A stretch of 64,000 nucleotides of DNA from Escherichia coli. GTDB lineage: Bacteria > Pseudomonadota > Gammaproteobacteria > Enterobacterales > Enterobacteriaceae. Below the pieces are notes generated by a model. That model searched no databases. It saw only the letters and a list, made by a program, of their open reading frames with translations, and had not been told where the DNA came from. The first letter of the stretch is position 1. Every line of letters begins with the position of its first letter. The DNA lies in NCBI RefSeq assembly GCF_011045215.1, contig NZ_CP049201.1; one strand, given 5' to 3'. Of this stretch, positions 10,477 through 17,871 are shown piece by piece. The position numbers and the translations under genes are program-made.

Positions 10477-11189
10477 CTCTTATAATTGGCATTATTCATT
10501 CAAGAACAATAGGATCTTCGCTTGTACAAGCGAAGCTATAATAAAAACAATCAATTAATTATTTTAAAAGTATTAAACAAGAACCTATTGACATTCATAA
10601 AATACAAGTTATTTATAATGTATGCCATAAATAAAAAGTTTTATGTCATATGTATCCTGCACTATGTGCAGTTAATGTACCACTTGTCCCATAGATGGGA
10701 ATATTGGAAAGGTTACTTTGTTTTGAAGTAGCCTTTCGTCCTTCAATATTAACGATTACTTATTGCTATTACCAAGTCCAGTCGAATCGAAGAACATCTT
10801 TTATCTGAAACGACTCCTAATACCCGGTTAAAGCCACAATAACTCTCGCATACGTAGACCAAAGAAAAATTATGATATTAAATATGTGATTTTTTTTAGT
10901 GTTAAGTTGAATAATTAAATACTGGAGAGTTTTCTGTGCACTACCAATTGCTGGTTCATCTGTTCTGCCGCTGATGTTTCTGACGAATCTCCCGGTGACA
11001 CAGAACTGTCCCTCTCTACCAGCCTTTATTCGACTCAATGTCCGGCTGCTGATACGCAGTTATCCCTTCGTATCAATGACTGACACTTAAACGTAATGCT
11101 TTGGTTGCTGGCGTATCTGACAGCTTCTTCGGCGTGAAGGTCGTTGTGTAAGTATACTTCTTGGTTTATTTAGGCTATATAAAACATGA

Positions 11190-12086
11190 CTATGACTTGC
11201 TGTTTTCAGTAAGAGTCTTATCATCCAAAGAATTTATTCTAGAAATTCTTTTTAACTCATTAAGATAATCAACCTCGTTTTCTAAGAACCAATGAAGAAC
11301 TTTAGAATTGCCAAGTAATTTATTAATATATGACTGGATTATAACGAATTTCAACATATCTGAACCATACTCGGTTTGAAGCTTTTTCGTTTCTTCCGAA
11401 GTTGTTGCCATTTCTTGTTCCAGACGAAGTATGGTTTTTTTTATATCCTTTTTATAGGGAGTGTTTTTCCCTTTATTTACTATCATCGATGCCGGTGTTG
11501 CATCCAAGATGCTCATTGCAAATTTTTTACTATAATTATCAAAATTAATCATTGTACCGACTGCTTCAATTTGGCGAATTGGCTTCATTTTCCTCAAAAC
11601 GTCAAATGTAGCCTTAGGTATAGGTTTATCAGAAAGTTTCGCAATTACACTTGGATCTATGCCGTTCATCACATTCGCTTTATCTTTTATGGCATCAACA
11701 GATATGCCCAAAGCAGCACTAAGTTTTTCAATTGATACTTTTGCCAGAGACTTAATTATCATTCTATGTTCTTCAACTACATTTATATGATTCACTTGTT
11801 TGTTAGGAGTGAAAGCATCATCTATGCTCGAAAGTATACATGGAGCTTTTTCTATACCTAAGTCTTTTAAAGCCTCAACCCTTAAATGGCCATCAAGTAT
11901 CTTAGTGACATCTTTATCTTTGTCATAGAATACTATTATTGGTTCAATAATACCTAAGCTTTCGATAGAGGTAACTATTTGATGATATTTATGGCTTCGC
12001 TTTACGTTTTCTAATAATTCCTTAGATGGAATTAACTTATTAGTTTCCAGGTAAATAAAATTATCGCCAAAACGTATCTGAATCAT
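11190..12086 (-). CDS. ParB/sulfiredoxin-fold N-terminal domain protein, 298 aa (third gene of recombinase operon)
   Basis: ParB-N-like motifs: SIESLGIIEPIIV...KILDGHLRVEALKDLG; 4-nt overlap with upstream gene. Confidence 0.6.
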   Translation of the reverse strand: MIQIRFGDNFIYLETNKLIPSKELLENVKRSHKYHQIVTSIESLGIIEPIIVFYDKDKDVTKILDGHLRVEALKDLGIEKAPCILSSIDDAFTPNKQVNHINVVEEHRMIIKSLAKVSIEKLSAALGISVDAIKDKANVMNGIDPSVIAKLSDKPIPKATFDVLRKMKPIRQIEAVGTMINFDNYSKKFAMSILDATPASMIVNKGKNTPYKKDIKKTILRLEQEMATTSEETKKLQTEYGSDMLKFVIIQSYINKLLGNSKVLHWFLENEVDYLNELKRISRINSLDDKTLTENSKS

Positions 12087-12979
12087 TTTAATACCTCTTT
12101 GTTTACTGGGGTTAATATCTGAGATGGTAGTTCTGAAAGATTCTCTTGTTCAAGTATATGTTGAAAGCTTTTATTCATCATTATGATGTTAAAAATCTCA
12201 TTTACTATTAGTAGGTTGGTTTTTATGAATTTTGAGTTGTTATAAACAGATTTATGTTCAGCGATACTATTTTCATAAAGCTCAATCAACTCCTCTGCAG
12301 TCATCCTTTTTGATGGTTTGTGATAATAAAATCCGGCTGCTTTTGCACCTTTATTCCCAACTGTTCTTTGATTTAGAATGTGTTTTATCTTTATAATGTC
12401 CCGACTTTTTATTAATTTTTTATCATATGCTTCGGTAAGAATATCTTGTGCTTCCTCAGTTTCACATCTTGCAAATTGCACTGCGAGATACAGAGGCAAA
12501 TTACCCCGTTCGACTGCTGAGAGAAGTTTATGCTCTCCCTTATCAAGTAGCATATTAATACTGCTCACCCAGTTCGATGAATATCCAGTAATCTCACTTA
12601 TTTCGGAGTCTGAAAGTCCTCTGATTTTCATGTCTTTAATCACCTGTAATAACTCATTAGAACGTGGTCTTCTCCTTGCAATGTTTTCAACTAAACTCAT
12701 AACGTAAGCATCTTCTTCTGATACATCTCTTATAATTGCTGGAATAATAGTTTCACCTAATGCAACGAGAGCCTCTATTCTCCCTTGACCACAAATTAAA
12801 GCATATTTGAAATCGCCTTCATCAATAGCTCTTACGCTTATAGGCTTGCTTAATCCTCTTTTTTTTATGCTTTCCTTTATTTCTTCATGCACTAACTTAT
12901 TTCTTGTTCGTGGGTTAAGAAATTTTATTTTTGCAATCTCAATTTGAATTATTGGGAATTCATTTTTTTCAGGCAGCAT
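12083..12979 (-). CDS. ParB-like N-terminal domain protein, 298 aa (second gene of recombinase operon)
   Basis: ParB-N-like layout: IEIAKIKFLNPRTRN...SIKKRGLSKPISVRAIDEG.FKYALICGQGRIEALVALGETIIPAIIRDVSEEDAYVMSLVENIARRR; 11-nt overlap with recombinase gene. Confidence 0.65.
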   Translation of the reverse strand: MLPEKNEFPIIQIEIAKIKFLNPRTRNKLVHEEIKESIKKRGLSKPISVRAIDEGDFKYALICGQGRIEALVALGETIIPAIIRDVSEEDAYVMSLVENIARRRPRSNELLQVIKDMKIRGLSDSEISEITGYSSNWVSSINMLLDKGEHKLLSAVERGNLPLYLAVQFARCETEEAQDILTEAYDKKLIKSRDIIKIKHILNQRTVGNKGAKAAGFYYHKPSKRMTAEELIELYENSIAEHKSVYNNSKFIKTNLLIVNEIFNIIMMNKSFQHILEQENLSELPSQILTPVNKEVLK

Positions 12980-14525
12980 ATAGTTCCCTCACTTTCATGC
13001 GAGTAATAATTTGTAGAAGTTTATCAAGATTATCAAATCTATAGAGATCTAATCGAATGTTGTTTGTTTCCGTCATGCACATTTTATTATATTCGTTTTC
13101 AATCTTTGGTATGATATAAAAATCAAGAGGTGAAATATTTTGTGAATTCATTCGTATAACAATTGTTATGTCTGCTTTCTGTGAGTTATCAAACCGGACT
13201 TTCCATCTAAGTTTACCTGATTTCATATGTATGCATTTAGTAACAAGGACGGAAATTAAAAACTCATCATTGATGTAAAGCATTGGGGCATATTTATACT
13301 CGTCTATATGACAGTTACTTTTTAAAATTTCACCCTTAAAATCCTCAATTATCTCTGAGTGAAATGATCTTAGTGCTTCATTTATTTTGAGATAGCTGTA
13401 ATCATGTTCTGGCTTATAACCAATCAAAGTATATGCTCTTAAAAGACCACCAAATCGGGTTCTATAAACAGAAGATGAAGGGCCTGTATCATCTTCATCA
13501 ATGATAAAGCCTGATAGTTTTCCATTAGATTCTAATTTTTGTTTTAGTTTTTCTAATAGATCTTCATTAGTCAAATGAATGGATCGGAGCTGAATTATTT
13601 CTTGAGCTTTATTGTATTTTTTCTTTGAAATAATAGGTTTATATGCCTTGTCACATCTAACCCATTCATGTTTGGGGTTTTTTACAAGCCTACTTTTTAA
13701 TTTAGATGAGGTTTTGTTATATATGTTGTTTCCAATATATTTTTCATTTGTCAAAATTTGATGTATTTTTGCACGAGTCCATAATGTTCCATTTTCTGCA
13801 GGTATGTTCTGTTCATTTAATCTCTCAGCAATAATGAATTCTGGGACGTTATTATCTATAAAGAGATCATATATTCTATTTACAATTTTTATTTCATTTT
13901 TTGGTCCCGGAATTAATATTACCCTATCTGTTTGAATACTCTTTCTTTTGCGGAAACTCAATATTTCTTTAGCTATGCCATTTTCGTCTACTAAAAGACG
14001 TCTCAGCCCATAACCAGCCATACCGCCTTGATGATAACCAAGCTTTATTAAATTTACTTGCCCTATAAATACCTTTTCAGATAAATTCCTGCTGTGATAT
14101 GCAGCACTAGATCTTTTTATATTCAGTATAACAGAGGACTCTAAAGGGAAATCTTTAGTGGGTATAGGTTCGGAACAATATATAAGATCTACACCATTTC
14201 TCTCAAATAGAAAGGAATAATATGCCGCTTCATCACTATTTTGAAAACGACCAAAACGGCTCACATCATAAAATAATACAGCCTGTATATCTATTTTCTT
14301 TTGTTCTACATCGCTAAGTAACTGCTGCAAAGAATGCCTGCCTACGATACTGACTCCGCTCTTACCTGCATCATCGTAGGTATAAGCGATTTCCATATTG
14401 TTCTTTTCAGCATAATCTTTGATATATTCGGACTGATTATGTAAAGAATATTGCTGATGGTCGGTAGACATCCTCAAGTACTGCGCGACCCTAACTCTAT
14501 GATTTTTGTCATTTTCGCTAGCCAT
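12969..14525 (-). CDS. Large serine recombinase (resolvase/invertase catalytic domain plus long C-terminal extension), 518 aa
   Basis: N-terminal serine-recombinase motifs (YLRMSTDHQ with candidate catalytic Ser, YDDAGKSG, VLFYDVSRFGR); size fits large serine recombinases, not small invertases. Confidence 0.75.
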   Translation of the reverse strand: MASENDKNHRVRVAQYLRMSTDHQQYSLHNQSEYIKDYAEKNNMEIAYTYDDAGKSGVSIVGRHSLQQLLSDVEQKKIDIQAVLFYDVSRFGRFQNSDEAAYYSFLFERNGVDLIYCSEPIPTKDFPLESSVILNIKRSSAAYHSRNLSEKVFIGQVNLIKLGYHQGGMAGYGLRRLLVDENGIAKEILSFRKRKSIQTDRVILIPGPKNEIKIVNRIYDLFIDNNVPEFIIAERLNEQNIPAENGTLWTRAKIHQILTNEKYIGNNIYNKTSSKLKSRLVKNPKHEWVRCDKAYKPIISKKKYNKAQEIIQLRSIHLTNEDLLEKLKQKLESNGKLSGFIIDEDDTGPSSSVYRTRFGGLLRAYTLIGYKPEHDYSYLKINEALRSFHSEIIEDFKGEILKSNCHIDEYKYAPMLYINDEFLISVLVTKCIHMKSGKLRWKVRFDNSQKADITIVIRMNSQNISPLDFYIIPKIENEYNKMCMTETNNIRLDLYRFDNLDKLLQIITRMKVRELYAA

Positions 14526-14696
14526 GCACGAAACCTCATGGGTGATTCAATACAATGTAGAGGATAAAATTGATCAAATTTTAACCGAATTCAACTGTTT
14601 TATCATTGATTAGAGCGAATTTGGTAGATCTTCGAGGTGTATGATAATCGAGAAGAGATGTGAATTATTTAGCTGATATGACCGACAGCTTTCGTT

Positions 14697-14744
14697 ATGT
14701 GGACTCAATGTCCCCATTTGTAAATGGCTATGCTTAGTCCACAT
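14697..14744. promoter_or_regulatory. Nested palindromic site upstream of the serine recombinase gene (candidate recombination site or operator)
   Basis: Perfect 9-bp inverted repeat atgtggact (14697-14705) / agtccacat (14736-14744) around inner palindrome ccatttgtaaatgg; 172 bp upstream of the recombinase start. Confidence 0.5.
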
Positions 14745-14807
14745 AGGTTAATGGTGTGATTATTAATTCTTTAACTAAATCAAGATAGTTAATCCATCAT
14801 GGGAGAG

Positions 14808-16037
14808 TTATGCGGCAATAACTTTGCATTTTTGAGACGAAACATAGTCACTCCACCATTGCATGAGAACCACCCGTTCAGTGAGATACTCTGCACGATT
14901 GTAGGCTGCAATTATTTCATCTTTCTTCGAGTGGGCAAGGGCGGCTTCTAAGACATCAGTCCTAAACTTGCCAGACTCCTCAGCAGCCGTTCTAGCAATG
15001 GATCGCATACCGTGAGCTACAAGCTCACCTCCGAAACCCATACGGATTATGGCCGCATTAGCTGTTTGTTCATGCATGTGATTGAGTGGAGCTTTGATAC
15101 TGGGGAACACCCACTCTCTATGCCCGCTGATGACTTTCATTAAATCCAAAACTCGCAAAGCTTCTTTGCTCAGTGGAACTTTGTGAGGCTTCTTCATTTT
15201 CATAAACTCCGCCGGGATGTTCCACATGCCAGTTTCAATATCAATATCTGACCATCTTGTGCGAACAGCTTCACCTGGGCGAACCCATGTGAGAAGTTGC
15301 CACTCAATCAGTAGCCTTGTTTCCAAACGGATAGAAGCATTGTTTAGAGCAACCAAGAAGCGAGGGAGTTCGGAAGGGGGTAATGCTGGCATATTCTGTT
15401 TTTTTGGCTTGCTGAACCGTTGCCCCAGGTTGTCTGCCGGGTTGAATTCTATGAGTTCTTCTGTTGCTGCATAGCGGAAAATTTCATTCAGGCGGGATAT
15501 GATGCGGCGAAGTGTTTCAAGGACACCTCGTTTTTCTATGGGTTCTAAATGCTGTTTAAGCATTTTAGGGCGAATCTCCTTAATTGGGGTATCACCCAAT
15601 GTGGAAAAGATATTTCTCTCTAGGCTTCGCCAGATGTCGTTAGCATGATCTTGGGAGATGCCTGACGTTTTGACTTTCTCATCAAGCCACTTCTTGGCTA
15701 CTGCTTGAAATGTATGTTCCGTGGCATCTTTCAGTGCATTGGCTTTTTGGTTGTTATGAACTTGGGGGTCTATACCATTTGTAAGCAACGACAAGTATTC
15801 ATCACGTAAAGCTCGTGCCTTCGCAAGTGTAAGGTGAGGATAGGTTCCTAAGCTCACCTTAGTTCGCTTTTTGGTCACAGGCACTGCATATCTGAAATAC
15901 CAATTTTTCTTCCCTCCCTTCGCCAGGGGAGCGATTCGCAACAGCAAACCATCGCCGTCAAAAAGGTTAACCTCTTTTTCGGCAGGTTTGGTGCTTTTGA
16001 TTTCAGTGTCAGTGAGCTTCTTAGCGATTTTGGCCAT
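14808..16037 (-). CDS. int: Site-specific tyrosine integrase (P4-type), next to ssrA
   Basis: ORF 14808..16118; likely start is Met at 16037 (MAKIAKKLTDTEIK...); C-terminal catalytic region with conserved R...H.xR...Y context (HGMRSIARTAAEE...ALAHSKKDEI..AYNRAEY); classic tmRNA-site location. Confidence 0.85.
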   Translation of the reverse strand: MAKIAKKLTDTEIKSTKPAEKEVNLFDGDGLLLRIAPLAKGGKKNWYFRYAVPVTKKRTKVSLGTYPHLTLAKARALRDEYLSLLTNGIDPQVHNNQKANALKDATEHTFQAVAKKWLDEKVKTSGISQDHANDIWRSLERNIFSTLGDTPIKEIRPKMLKQHLEPIEKRGVLETLRRIISRLNEIFRYAATEELIEFNPADNLGQRFSKPKKQNMPALPPSELPRFLVALNNASIRLETRLLIEWQLLTWVRPGEAVRTRWSDIDIETGMWNIPAEFMKMKKPHKVPLSKEALRVLDLMKVISGHREWVFPSIKAPLNHMHEQTANAAIIRMGFGGELVAHGMRSIARTAAEESGKFRTDVLEAALAHSKKDEIIAAYNRAEYLTERVVLMQWWSDYVSSQKCKVIAA

Positions 16038-16203
16038 GTTTGGGACCCTCGATTTTAGGACCCATCTTCGTGGGTCCCATTCAGGGTGCCATAACTCGTA
16101 GTTCTCAGCAATTCTCACTAGACTACAATAGACGTAAAAAAGCCCGCAGAGCTTGTGCTGTGCGGGCTTAGTAGACTTTACTGAACTTCAGTACATCAAT
16201 ATT

Positions 16204-16565
16204 TGGTGGAGCTGGCGGGAGTTGAACCCGCGTCCGAAATTCCTACATCCTCGGTACTACATGCTTAGTCAGTCTTTACATTCGCTTGCCAGCTGCGGAC
16301 GGACACGCCACTAACAAACTAGCCTGATTAAGTTTTAACGCTTCAACCCCAGGCAGGGCTTCCACGCGATCTCTTTTGGGTTTGACCTCTCTTGATCCCC
16401 GTCCTAAGAGCGGAGGCTAGGGAGAGAGGGCTCTAAGCAGGTTATTAAGCTGCTAAAGCGTAGTTTTCGTCGTTTGCGACTATTTTTTGCGGCTTTTTAC
16501 GAGGCCAACCGCCCCTCGGCATGCACCTTGGGTTTCGCAAATCCCGTCGAATCCAGAATCAGCCC
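16204..16565 (-). ncRNA. ssrA: tmRNA (SsrA), transfer-messenger RNA
   Basis: Reverse complement of 16565 downward begins GGGGCTGATTCTGGATTCGACGGG; 3' end ...GCTCCACCA is the reverse complement of 16204-16212; tag ORF ANDENYALAA region recognisable. Confidence 0.95.
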
Positions 16566-16780
16566 CAATGTGTAAAGGTAAGTATACCAGATTTATGAGC
16601 GCCATGACCAGCCTCAATGGCGTTATCGTTAAAGATTTAGCACCCATGTAGCCTGATTTTTATTCGATTAAGCAATGGGATGGCAACATTTGTGTCGGAT
16701 GTGATAGCCAATAAGATGTTCATTCGCGCCGCCGGAGAGGGAGGCGCGGTGAGGAACTGGTCAATAATTGGAGTGCAGGT

Positions 16781-17394: not shown

Positions 17395-17871
17395 ATGATA
17401 TTATTTGTTGGATTTTTGTTGATGGAAATTGTTATGCCTCAGATTAGCCGGACCGCACTGGTACCCTACAGCGCGGAGCAAATGTATCAGTTAGTGAATG
17501 ACGTTCAGTCTTATCCTCAGTTTTTGCCGGGTTGTACCGGAAGTCGGATTCTGGAGTCCACTCCTGGGCAGATGACTGCGGCGGTAGATGTCTCTAAGGC
17601 TGGGATCAGCAAAACGTTTACTACCCGCAACCAGTTGACCAGTAACCAAAGTATTCTTATGAATCTGGTGGATGGGCCGTTCAAGAAATTGATTGGTGGA
17701 TGGAAGTTTACGCCGCTGAGCCAGGAGGCGTGTCGTATCGAGTTTCATCTCGACTTTGAGTTTACCAATAAGTTGATTGAGCTCGCCTTTGGTCGCGTGT
17801 TTAAAGAGCTGGCGTCTAATATGGTCCAGGCTTTTACGGTTCGTGCGAAAGAGGTTTACAGTGCCAGGTAA
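17395..17871 (+). CDS. ratA: Ribosome association toxin RatA (SRPBCC family)
   Basis: 158-aa ORF matches E. coli RatA/YfjG; start may be internal ([16 protein letters not shown]...). Confidence 0.85.

Follow-up and report, generated by a model that had tools for sequence, protein, structure and literature searches.

The window analysed here is a stretch of 64,000 nucleotides from Escherichia coli (assembly GCF_011045215.1, contig NZ_CP049201.1), and the subject of this study is a set of three translationally coupled genes on its minus strand, referred to as the trio, which encode a serine recombinase of 518 aa and two ParB-like proteins of 298 aa each, ParB1 and ParB2 (Table 1). The trio belongs to the island at the transfer-messenger RNA (tmRNA) gene ssrA, whose tyrosine integrase is located between ssrA and the trio, and the opposite side is occupied by a type I restriction-modification (R-M) operon. 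The DNA has a GC content of 0.30-0.35 over 11-14 kb, against about 0.50 in the flanking core genome. These outlines had already been drawn from the letters of the DNA alone, in what is called here the sequence-only reading, and they stand: the three minus-strand genes, their coordinates and their overlaps of 11 and 4 nt coincide exactly with the list of open reading frames (ORFs), the AT-richness and the placement between the type I R-M operon and the island integrase are as described, and a ParA-type gene, whose absence had been pointed out, is annotated neither in the four E. coli contexts inspected nor in the Agrobacterium plasmid pAtC58, a Piscinibacter plasmid or the Pfam-annotated contigs. 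The same reading recognised no named system in the trio, in agreement with a literature in which no prior description of it was found, and with PADLOC, where no model matches the recombinase and the two ParBs only match type II methyltransferase models via the shared ParB_N domain. The trio is more than an annotation gap: it is an unnamed, widespread and strongly constrained module, and probably a variant of the integration modules based on a serine recombinase.

As a self-contained module, the trio occupies the boundary where mobility genes give way to cargo, and it does so in unrelated kinds of mobile element. The order recombinase-ParB1-ParB2, the sizes of the products (about 520, 300 and 305 aa) and the abutting or overlapping reading frames are kept in all 80 loci with enough sequence, and a scan of one genome per species found relatives in at least 430 genomes. 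ParB2 alone has 1384 detectable homologues, and full-length identity of about 40% reaches the Alpha- and Betaproteobacteria; the trio is also present in Pfam-annotated contigs from Rhodovulum, Paraburkholderia, Azospirillum, a metagenome and Salmonella. When the window is compared with the 94.6%-identity copy, the ratio of nonsynonymous to synonymous substitution rates (dN/dS) is 0.11 for the recombinase, 0.08 for ParB1 and 0.04 for ParB2, i.e., all three genes are under strong purifying selection. Regarding the backbones, the trio is found in P4-type integrase islands of E. coli, Salmonella, Pluralibacter and Paraburkholderia, while a tyrosine integrase lies within 10 kb of it in only about 9 of the 80 loci. 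Several genomes have two trio copies, and many copies are on short contigs or at contig ends.

Within E. coli, the trio (as a 3.8-kb segment) is present in 659 of 5426 complete genomes, mostly with at least 99% identity, plus the 94.6% variant class, and all 661 copies are chromosomal. A nucleotide search (megablast) of phage and plasmid collections gave no match, and the search at the protein level returned a single 7.5-kb faecal "phage" contig and 103 plasmid records with relatives, mostly large rhizobial replicons; from the near-empty phage results it follows that the trio is not phage-borne. In each of the four E. coli contexts, the trio adjoins a tyrosine integrase, either intact or decayed, and the two are co-inherited, since the integrase (at least 90% identity) occurs in about 647 genomes, compared to 659 for the trio. 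The site is ssrA in three of them (E24377A, O157:H16 and the B lineage); in strain E14 it is a tRNA-Arg gene with a tandem array. The other flank is variable (type I R-M plus Kiwa, HxsABCD plus TIGR04141, or insertion sequence (IS) elements), with ankyrin genes and a relaxase beyond it. As for the B lineage, in NEBExpress (NZ_CP053599.1, 1803691-1808538; locus L003) only the ssrA integrase and an intact trio are left, the rest having been lost by an IS1-associated deletion, so that a common laboratory strain offers the trio in a naturally minimal setting.

Some individual loci outside the Enterobacteria give an idea of the diversity of the surroundings. In pAtC58 of the model strain Agrobacterium fabrum C58 (NC_003064.2, 40495-43834, ATU_RS24135-24145; L097:7552-10891), the trio is encoded between an AbiEii toxin-antitoxin pair and a Fic gene, and in the Piscinibacter plasmid NZ_CP136338.1 (L098:2033-10876) it directly follows the tnsA-tnsB-tniB-tniQ genes of a Tn7-like transposon, with a VgrG/AHH toxin and PLD-like cargo beyond. 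The place after tniQ is the one occupied by TniR in Tn5053/Tn402. The pSymA-type plasmid of Sinorhizobium meliloti BL225C (L219:12001-13864) carries two tandem, frameshifted ParB2 fragments next to an IS30 and neither recombinase nor ParB1, and strain 1021 retains part of one ParB2 fragment only; these are decayed relics of the trio on rhizobial megaplasmids. The S. meliloti megaplasmids were considered as a pair of occupied and empty sites and set aside, as the locus is such a relic and its breakpoints are uninformative.

The recombinase has a Resolvase domain (PF00239, residues 14-152, E 1.4e-21) and a Recombinase domain (PF07508, residues 210-312, E 1.2e-21) in Pfam. The motifs that had been proposed from the letters are present, and the catalytic ones (R18, S20, D87, R90 and R93) are invariant across 36 family members; judging by these residues, the enzyme is catalytically intact. 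It resembles CcrB, CcrC and IS607 in NCBIfam, always below the threshold, and about 319 columns align structurally with SprA, Bxb1 and PhiC31. The long C-terminal extension noticed earlier is real as well, although it is not the usual module of large serine recombinases: the zinc-ribbon domain (Zn_ribbon_recom) finds no match in Pfam, and there is no conserved Cys4 in the family alignment. In the AlphaFold2 (AF2) models, the C-terminal half is made of helices and a beta domain, a long coiled coil is absent, and fold comparison of the models matches the beta domain to PD-(D/E)XK folds. The resulting architecture combines the resolvase catalytic domain and the recombinase domain with a helical segment that is HNH-repeat-like and with a beta domain that is PD-(D/E)XK-like. 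The assignment of the last one comes from the fold comparison, profile searches of the C-terminus against PDB sequences and Pfam being uninformative (noise or a weak HNH_repeat signal only), and the canonical D...ExK motif is not evident among the invariant residues of the domain. On these models, the enzyme represents a new architecture among the serine integrases, in which a PD-(D/E)XK-like domain replaces the zinc-ribbon/coiled-coil module.

In terms of relationships, the enzyme shares the catalytic and recombinase domains with the large serine integrases (SprA of SPbeta, Bxb1, PhiC31, TP901-1, CcrB, TnpX). It differs from them in having the HNH-repeat-like and PD-(D/E)XK-like parts instead of the zinc ribbon and the coiled coil, and in being always co-encoded with two ParB-like proteins, with no evident small gene of the recombination directionality factor type. 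The small resolvases (Tn3/gamma-delta, Sin, TniR) are proteins of about 180-210 aa with a C-terminal helix-turn-helix (HTH) that act at res sites, whereas the trio enzyme has 518 aa and extra domains, and its flanks contain no res-like array of multiple subsites according to the repeat search.

Both ParB-fold assignments of the sequence-only reading are borne out by Pfam, which finds ParB_N and RepB in each protein, although to a different extent. ParB1 has ParB_N (PF02195, 5.4e-13), RepB (1.4e-7) and an HTH region, exceeds the cutoff of TIGR00180 (parB_part) with 60 bits, and aligns with the structures of Spo0J (1vz0), Noc and KorB. Its motifs NPR.R, GL..P.TV, CGqGRlEA and MSLvENARR are kept at 90% or more in 58 homologues. 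The signature of the nucleotide pocket is mostly canonical, with NPR.R, GQGR at the place where GERR is expected and ENIAR where ENLQR is expected, so ParB1 may bind a nucleotide. When compared to the canonical boxes for cytidine triphosphate (CTP), GERRxR and ENLxR, ParB1 presents GQGR and ENIAR, conserved at 90% or more, and ParB2 presents GHLR and no ENxxR. In ParB2 the C-terminal RepB domain is strong (2.9e-24) and ParB_N weak (2.6e-5), and a 29-sequence alignment shows S-x-KY-x-Q, EP, DGHLRxE, C83, YNK and QEHRM as invariant; the DGxxR-type motif that had been spotted in it is thus real, in the form DGHLR, and is reminiscent of ParB-like nucleases. The identity between both proteins is limited to 30% over 63 aa, and ParB2 is, by its sequence, a very diverged paralogue. 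With the known ParB CTP clamps (Spo0J/ParB, Noc, KorB, BisD, VirB), ParB1 shares the N-terminal domain, the HTH and the NPR, GxxR and ENxxR positions. The differences are that no ParA partner or parS array was found with the trio, that its box II is GQGR rather than GERR, and that ParB1 is paired with a degenerate paralogue (GHLR, no ENxxR) and with a recombinase.

A hint at what the recombinase does comes from the alpha clade (Alphaproteobacteria). In four of its loci, an intact tRNA-Ser gene lies downstream of the trio with its 3' end facing it, and the four anticodons are different. In addition, the word TGGCGGAG(G), the reverse complement of the tRNA-Ser 3' end, appears 0.3-3.3 kb upstream of the recombinase and on the same strand in 30 of 64 loci, with 31 occurrences compared to 7 for its reverse complement and a mean of 3.5 for shuffled words. 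The similarity to tRNA-Ser at the motif continues through the T arm in some loci (L057 and L082), the homology between L031 and L032 starts exactly at the motif, and unrelated housekeeping genes are found past the motif junction in five loci. The smallest units measure 5.2 kb (L055) and 5.5 kb (L058) and consist of ParE, ParD, a small HTH protein, the trio and an RNA (see below), with no other recombinase, which is why the serine recombinase would be their integrase; these minimal elements also hint, indirectly, at attP x attB integration by this enzyme. The sequence TGGCGGAGG is a candidate crossover region at tRNA-Ser. Furthermore, L055 contains a perfect 38-bp direct repeat of the 3' part of tRNA-Ser (11253-11290 and 17410-17447) that flanks a 6-kb island with a tyrosine integrase of its own; the repeat lies about 160 nt past the RNA element, and the integrase gene comes directly after it. 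A second island was therefore inserted in tandem into the tRNA gene that first adjoined the trio unit, which is a clear case of accretion at a single tRNA gene.

The other end of the trio behaves as a slot for cargo. Homology between related copies repeatedly stops 150-220 bp past the stop codon of ParB2, and the trio stays constant while the neighbouring defence genes vary. When the largest ORF within 9 kb downstream of the trio was compared with PADLOC (PADLOC-DB v2) in 26 loci, it was a clear defence component in 12-14 of them: ZacC of Azaca (two loci), BrxC of BREX (two loci), MkoA of Mokosh, DrmMI of DISARM, type I and type III methyltransferases, HKD-Snf2, Druantia-like and Tiamat-like components, an Hma/PglX-like methylase and a retron-type phosphoribosyltransferase (PRTase). 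In one distant metagenomic locus (L090), as in the window, the trio is followed by a type I R-M operon that points in its direction.

In most members from outside the Enterobacteria, the trio is separated from this slot by a conserved segment of 190-245 nt, located directly after the ParB2 stop on the same strand. BLAST detects it in 53 loci, and a covariance model in 58 of the 80 loci that are not from E. coli. Its structure was defined manually and tested by pair counts and controls, after a structure from RNAalifold only, which recovered just part of the fold, had been replaced. On an alignment of 37 sequences, the eight helices have 90.0% of their cells paired (34-41% in slid controls) and 36 pairs changed on both sides (14-22 in the controls), and in 500 shuffles the observed values are not attained once, whichever of the five measures is taken. 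G-U pairs outnumber A-C mismatches (118 versus 50), and this excess favours pairing at the RNA level on the trio strand. The last helix is a terminator-like hairpin of 13 bp, and the variable cargo starts directly after it. With gathering thresholds, Rfam gave no match to the motif in six loci, and a search with the element itself stayed empty even up to an E value of 10. The invariant core of the RNA is found in more than 120 metagenome contigs; among the 73 with room upstream, ParB2 immediately precedes it in 61. According to its covariation, this is a new and widespread structured RNA. Searches with the covariance model find it neither in the window nor in other Enterobacteria, pAtC58 or the Tn7-like locus, which means that the RNA is not part of the E. 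coli copy of the trio, and the Rfam search of the window revealed nothing relevant. An IS3-family remnant about 50 nt past ParB2 may have removed the original downstream sequence in the window: the 94.6%-identity E. coli copies align only from window positions 11140-11143 (query 141-144), that is, at the edge of the remnant, and from this end of the homology to the divergent copies it follows that the original DNA downstream of the operon has been lost here. An IS3 pseudogene is annotated at the matching position in another E. coli locus (L004).

Two side observations on the RNA can be added. In the remaining 12 of the 73 metagenome contigs the RNA is an orphan (L119, L122, L126, L143, L144, L151, L152, L154, L159, L160 and L169, plus L121, with a ParB2 match about 280 nt upstream), in heterogeneous contexts that include a nearby IS30 in one case. 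In L028, two direct copies of the RNA (10889-11017 and 17650-17778, 88% identical over 123 nt) bracket an MkoA-like gene of Mokosh (1652 aa) and a gene for a 560-aa protein in a cassette-like manner, and the contig ends 213 nt past the second copy.

Upstream of the recombinase, the search for parS-like sites yielded single short palindromes only, AAAATTGATCAATTTT in Enterobacteria and GTTTC-N-GAAAC types in the alpha clade, and the repeat search of the window found no array of palindromes. A palindrome centred on GATC, AAAA(A/T)TGATCAATTTT, recurs in the enterobacterial loci L011, L012, L018 and L019 at 40-60 nt before the start of the recombinase gene, and the window has its own version at the predicted -10 box (Table 1). 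These palindromes are plausible candidates for operators or loading sites of the ParB pair or of the HTH protein. No enrichment of promoter-like sites over shuffles is seen in the AT-rich DNA of the trio. A larger, nested palindrome between the integrase and the recombinase promoter could be the integrase terminator or a site for the recombinase; its candidacy as an attachment (att) site was dropped, because the other enterobacterial loci do not share this 50-nt sequence ahead of their recombinase genes.

What is, then, the function of the trio? Most likely it is machinery of mobile elements rather than of defence, and it is probably not itself a defence system. In the reading preferred here, to which we would give an even chance, the three genes form a conserved core for recombination and maintenance in a widespread family of small integrative elements, by which cargo for defence against phages is carried or anchored. 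The recombinase would perform the site-specific DNA transactions of the element (integration, excision and, possibly, the exchange of cargo at the downstream slot), with the helical segment and the endonuclease-fold DNA-binding domain predicted to stand in for the zinc-ribbon/coiled-coil module. The ParB pair would be its obligate partners, most likely as a hetero-oligomeric DNA-binding complex at the palindromes of the control region, and would control expression and/or the direction of recombination, or else hold the circle after excision. As for the window, the core would there have been absorbed into a mobilizable, relaxase-bearing island with a tyrosine integrase at ssrA, where it sits between the integrase and the type I R-M/Kiwa cargo. 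One option of the sequence-only reading was a small element nested in the island, with the trio as its integration/maintenance core. The first half of that idea is favoured by the invariance of the unit as a backbone, its vicinity to mobility genes and the minimal tRNA-Ser elements; the second half does not hold, as the window contains no separately bounded nested element.

Several points weigh against the preferred reading. In the window, the tyrosine integrase is the obvious agent of integration at ssrA, and no internal repeat of the ssrA 3' end, besides ssrA itself, bounds the trio, which is thus contained within the tyrosine-integrase island. The domain on which canonical serine integrases depend for site recognition and directionality is missing from the recombinase. 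Regarding the tRNA-Ser elements, their left end is uncertain by up to about 0.4 kb, since the DNA to the left of the motif is common to loci with different neighbours; the ends of the elements are placed approximately, not to the base. All this tRNA-Ser evidence comes, besides, from one large clade and may not transfer to the Enterobacteria.

Among the alternatives, the one that survives best, even if we regard it as rather unlikely, is that of a stability module, in which the recombinase would resolve multimers, cointegrates or tandem arrays and the ParB pair would provide a ParA-independent or host-ParA-dependent partition or condensation of a plasmid or circle, with a logic like that of plasmid multimer-resolution and partition loci and of TniR in Tn5053/Tn402. 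It would account for the score of ParB1 above the TIGR00180 cutoff, for the RepB plasmid-partition domain of both ParBs, for the relatives on 103 plasmid records, mostly large rhizobial replicons, for the location after tniQ in the Tn7-like element (the place of TniR in Tn5053/Tn402) and for the frequency of toxin-antitoxin stability genes (ParDE, AbiE) among the neighbours. Nevertheless, the E. coli copies are without exception chromosomal and most other loci are on large chromosomal contigs, no ParA is encoded nearby, the enzyme is large and integrase-like rather than a small resolvase and has no res-like array of subsites, and the minimal tRNA-Ser-associated elements have no other integrase. 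An analogy with multimer resolution by the parCBA genes of RK2 was also entertained and dropped, because the RK2 "ParB" is a thermonuclease-type nuclease and its resolvase is small.

That the trio acts in anti-phage or anti-plasmid defence, or in anti-defence, is improbable. According to this idea, a ParB-like clamp/nuclease pair would recognise foreign DNA, to be inactivated by the recombinase or by its endonuclease-fold domain. The neighbourhood is certainly rich in defence (BREX, Azaca, Mokosh, DISARM, type I and type III R-M, Kiwa, AbiE), ParB2 has the invariant DGHLR, with its resemblance to ParB-like nucleases, the C-terminal domain of the recombinase has a predicted PD-(D/E)XK-like fold, and purifying selection is maintained even where the remaining island is deleted, as in E. 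coli B. However, no PADLOC match goes beyond ParB_N-containing methyltransferases, the trio stays the same from locus to locus and the genes around it change, as is typical of a backbone gene set and not of cargo, and its position is fixed relative to the mobility genes and the element ends in several backbones. Moreover, the conserved catalytic residues of the serine recombinase point to conservative site-specific recombination, and D...ExK is not evident in its C-terminal domain. The sequence-only reading had offered this alternative as well; it takes its whole case from the neighbourhood, which is better explained by the trio bordering a cargo slot.

The weakest alternative, which we consider very doubtful, is a regulatory clamp, i.e., ParB1 and ParB2 loading near the operon and sliding or spreading into the AT-rich cargo for its activation or silencing in the manner of KorB, BisD or VirB, with a secondary role for the recombinase: it agrees with the nucleotide-pocket signature that ParB1 largely keeps, with the candidate palindromic sites of the control region, with the cargo of several loci (among them the window and L090), which follows the operon and shares its orientation, and with the precedent of ParB-like CTP clamps as long-range regulators, such as BisD of ICEclc (PMC12409273), but it leaves an obligatory, coupled and catalytically intact recombinase unexplained, a conserved terminator-like hairpin parts the operon from the cargo in many loci, and the orientation of the cargo is not uniform.

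The trio as core of integrative elements could also be taken one step further by including the RNA. We think it improbable that the recombinase, the ParBs and the RNA form an RNA-assisted machine for site-specific recombination that keeps a docking slot directly behind the RNA/terminator, where defence cassettes would be captured and exchanged in an integron-like fashion, and that recognises its sites via the partner proteins and/or the RNA rather than a zinc ribbon. The chance that the RNA and the ParB partners make the trio mechanistically new is small. With the RNA-associated recombinases (the bridge or seek RNAs of IS110/IS1111, and the TnpA of IS607 together with the omega RNA of TnpB), the likeness is conceptual and consists in a structured RNA at the end of a recombinase operon, by the element boundary. 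The difference lies in the enzymes, DEDD or RuvC in those systems and a serine recombinase in the trio, and no serine recombinase is known to use an RNA. Variable, guide-like loops matching the flanking DNA were not evident in the trio-associated RNA.

The closest system described so far is the integration module (DsiB/DsiA) of the ssrA islands of Dehalococcoides: a CcrB-like large serine recombinase is joined in it by a protein with a ParB domain and by a conserved, structured RNA locus of tRNA-like type, and the module integrates at ssrA or another single-copy RNA gene and forms tandem island arrays (PMC3146451). The trio resembles it, and the ccr complexes of the staphylococcal cassette chromosome (SCC), as an integration module that ends defence or accessory islands. 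The resemblance is in theme only. In Dehalococcoides, the gene set includes another serine recombinase, which is small, as well as genes for a RecF-like protein, for a homologue of Mom and for one ParB-domain protein of 210 aa (PMC3146451), whereas the trio has exactly two ParB/RepB proteins of about 300 aa, a different RNA of about 200 nt and, in the window, a tyrosine integrase by ssrA. No second recombinase, RecF-like or Mom gene of this kind was found in any trio locus. On the side of the island, the window is of the same type as the defence-bearing integrative and mobilizable elements (IMEs) of the tmRNA hotspot (hotspot #9) in the survey of Hochhauser et al. 2023, with an ssrA-adjacent P4-type integrase, defence cargo and a relaxase. 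That survey gives the hotspot and its IMEs and does not mention the recombinase-ParB-ParB trio, which, by contrast, reaches far beyond E. coli and beyond such islands.

The trio is present in about one eighth of the complete E. coli genomes, including the laboratory B lineage, and in hundreds of other species, and it borders regions with BREX, DISARM, Mokosh, Azaca, R-M, Kiwa and other defence systems. Should the trio be what moves or loads such regions, it would explain in part how defence islands are assembled and spread, and it would serve as a simple set of marker genes for new defence systems in Proteobacteria. Besides, its recombinase is an architectural variant of the serine integrases that serve as tools for genome engineering. 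The domain by which these normally choose site and direction is missing from it, and it seems to rely on a pair of ParB-like proteins, so that its study could reveal a new way of targeting serine recombination.

Table 1. Positions of the trio, its control region and its neighbours in the window, and of the RNA motif in a reference locus
Feature	Position	Strand	Basis and remarks
Serine recombinase gene	12969-14525	minus	518 aa; ORF and Pfam
ParB1 gene	12083-12979	minus	298 aa; ORF overlapping the recombinase gene by 11 nt; Pfam
ParB2 gene	11190-12086	minus	298 aa; ORF overlapping ParB1 by 4 nt; Pfam
Probable operon promoter and leader	14526-14610	minus	promoter-like site ATGATA-17-TAAAAT at 14606-14578
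GATC-centred palindrome of 17 nt, AAAATTTGATCAATTTT	14566-14582		overlaps the predicted -10 box; sequence
Nested imperfect palindrome, TATGTGGACT...AGTCCACATA	14696-14745		between integrase stop and recombinase promoter; repeat search and sequence
P4-type tyrosine integrase of the ssrA island	14808-16118	minus	ORF; integrase annotation in E24377A
tmRNA gene ssrA	16204-16566		smpB beyond
Type I hsdM	8047-9594		flanks the trio; starts the type I R-M operon, followed by Kiwa (comparison with E24377A)
IS3-family remnant	11006-11140		starts about 50 nt past the ParB2 stop
Further IS3-family transposase fragment	9755-9961		
RNA motif consensus	L022:10890-11095	trio strand	57 other genome loci and more than 120 metagenome contigs

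Finally, some minor features of the window surround the trio. The interval between hsdM and the trio includes about 1 kb (9962-11000) with a GC content of about 0.35, no convincing ORF and no Rfam match, and is probably decayed mobile-element DNA. In comparison with E24377A, the cargo at about 1-9594 consists of ankyrin-repeat genes, Kiwa (kwaA/kwaB) and the type I operon hsdR-hsdS-hsdM, with a difference in length of about 186 nt between both strains in the hsdS/hsdM region. On the other side, positions 16136-16213 give a partial Rfam match to the Salmonella small RNA IsrM that is far below the threshold (46 bits, the gathering score being 376) and adjoins the 3' end of ssrA, at the island junction.

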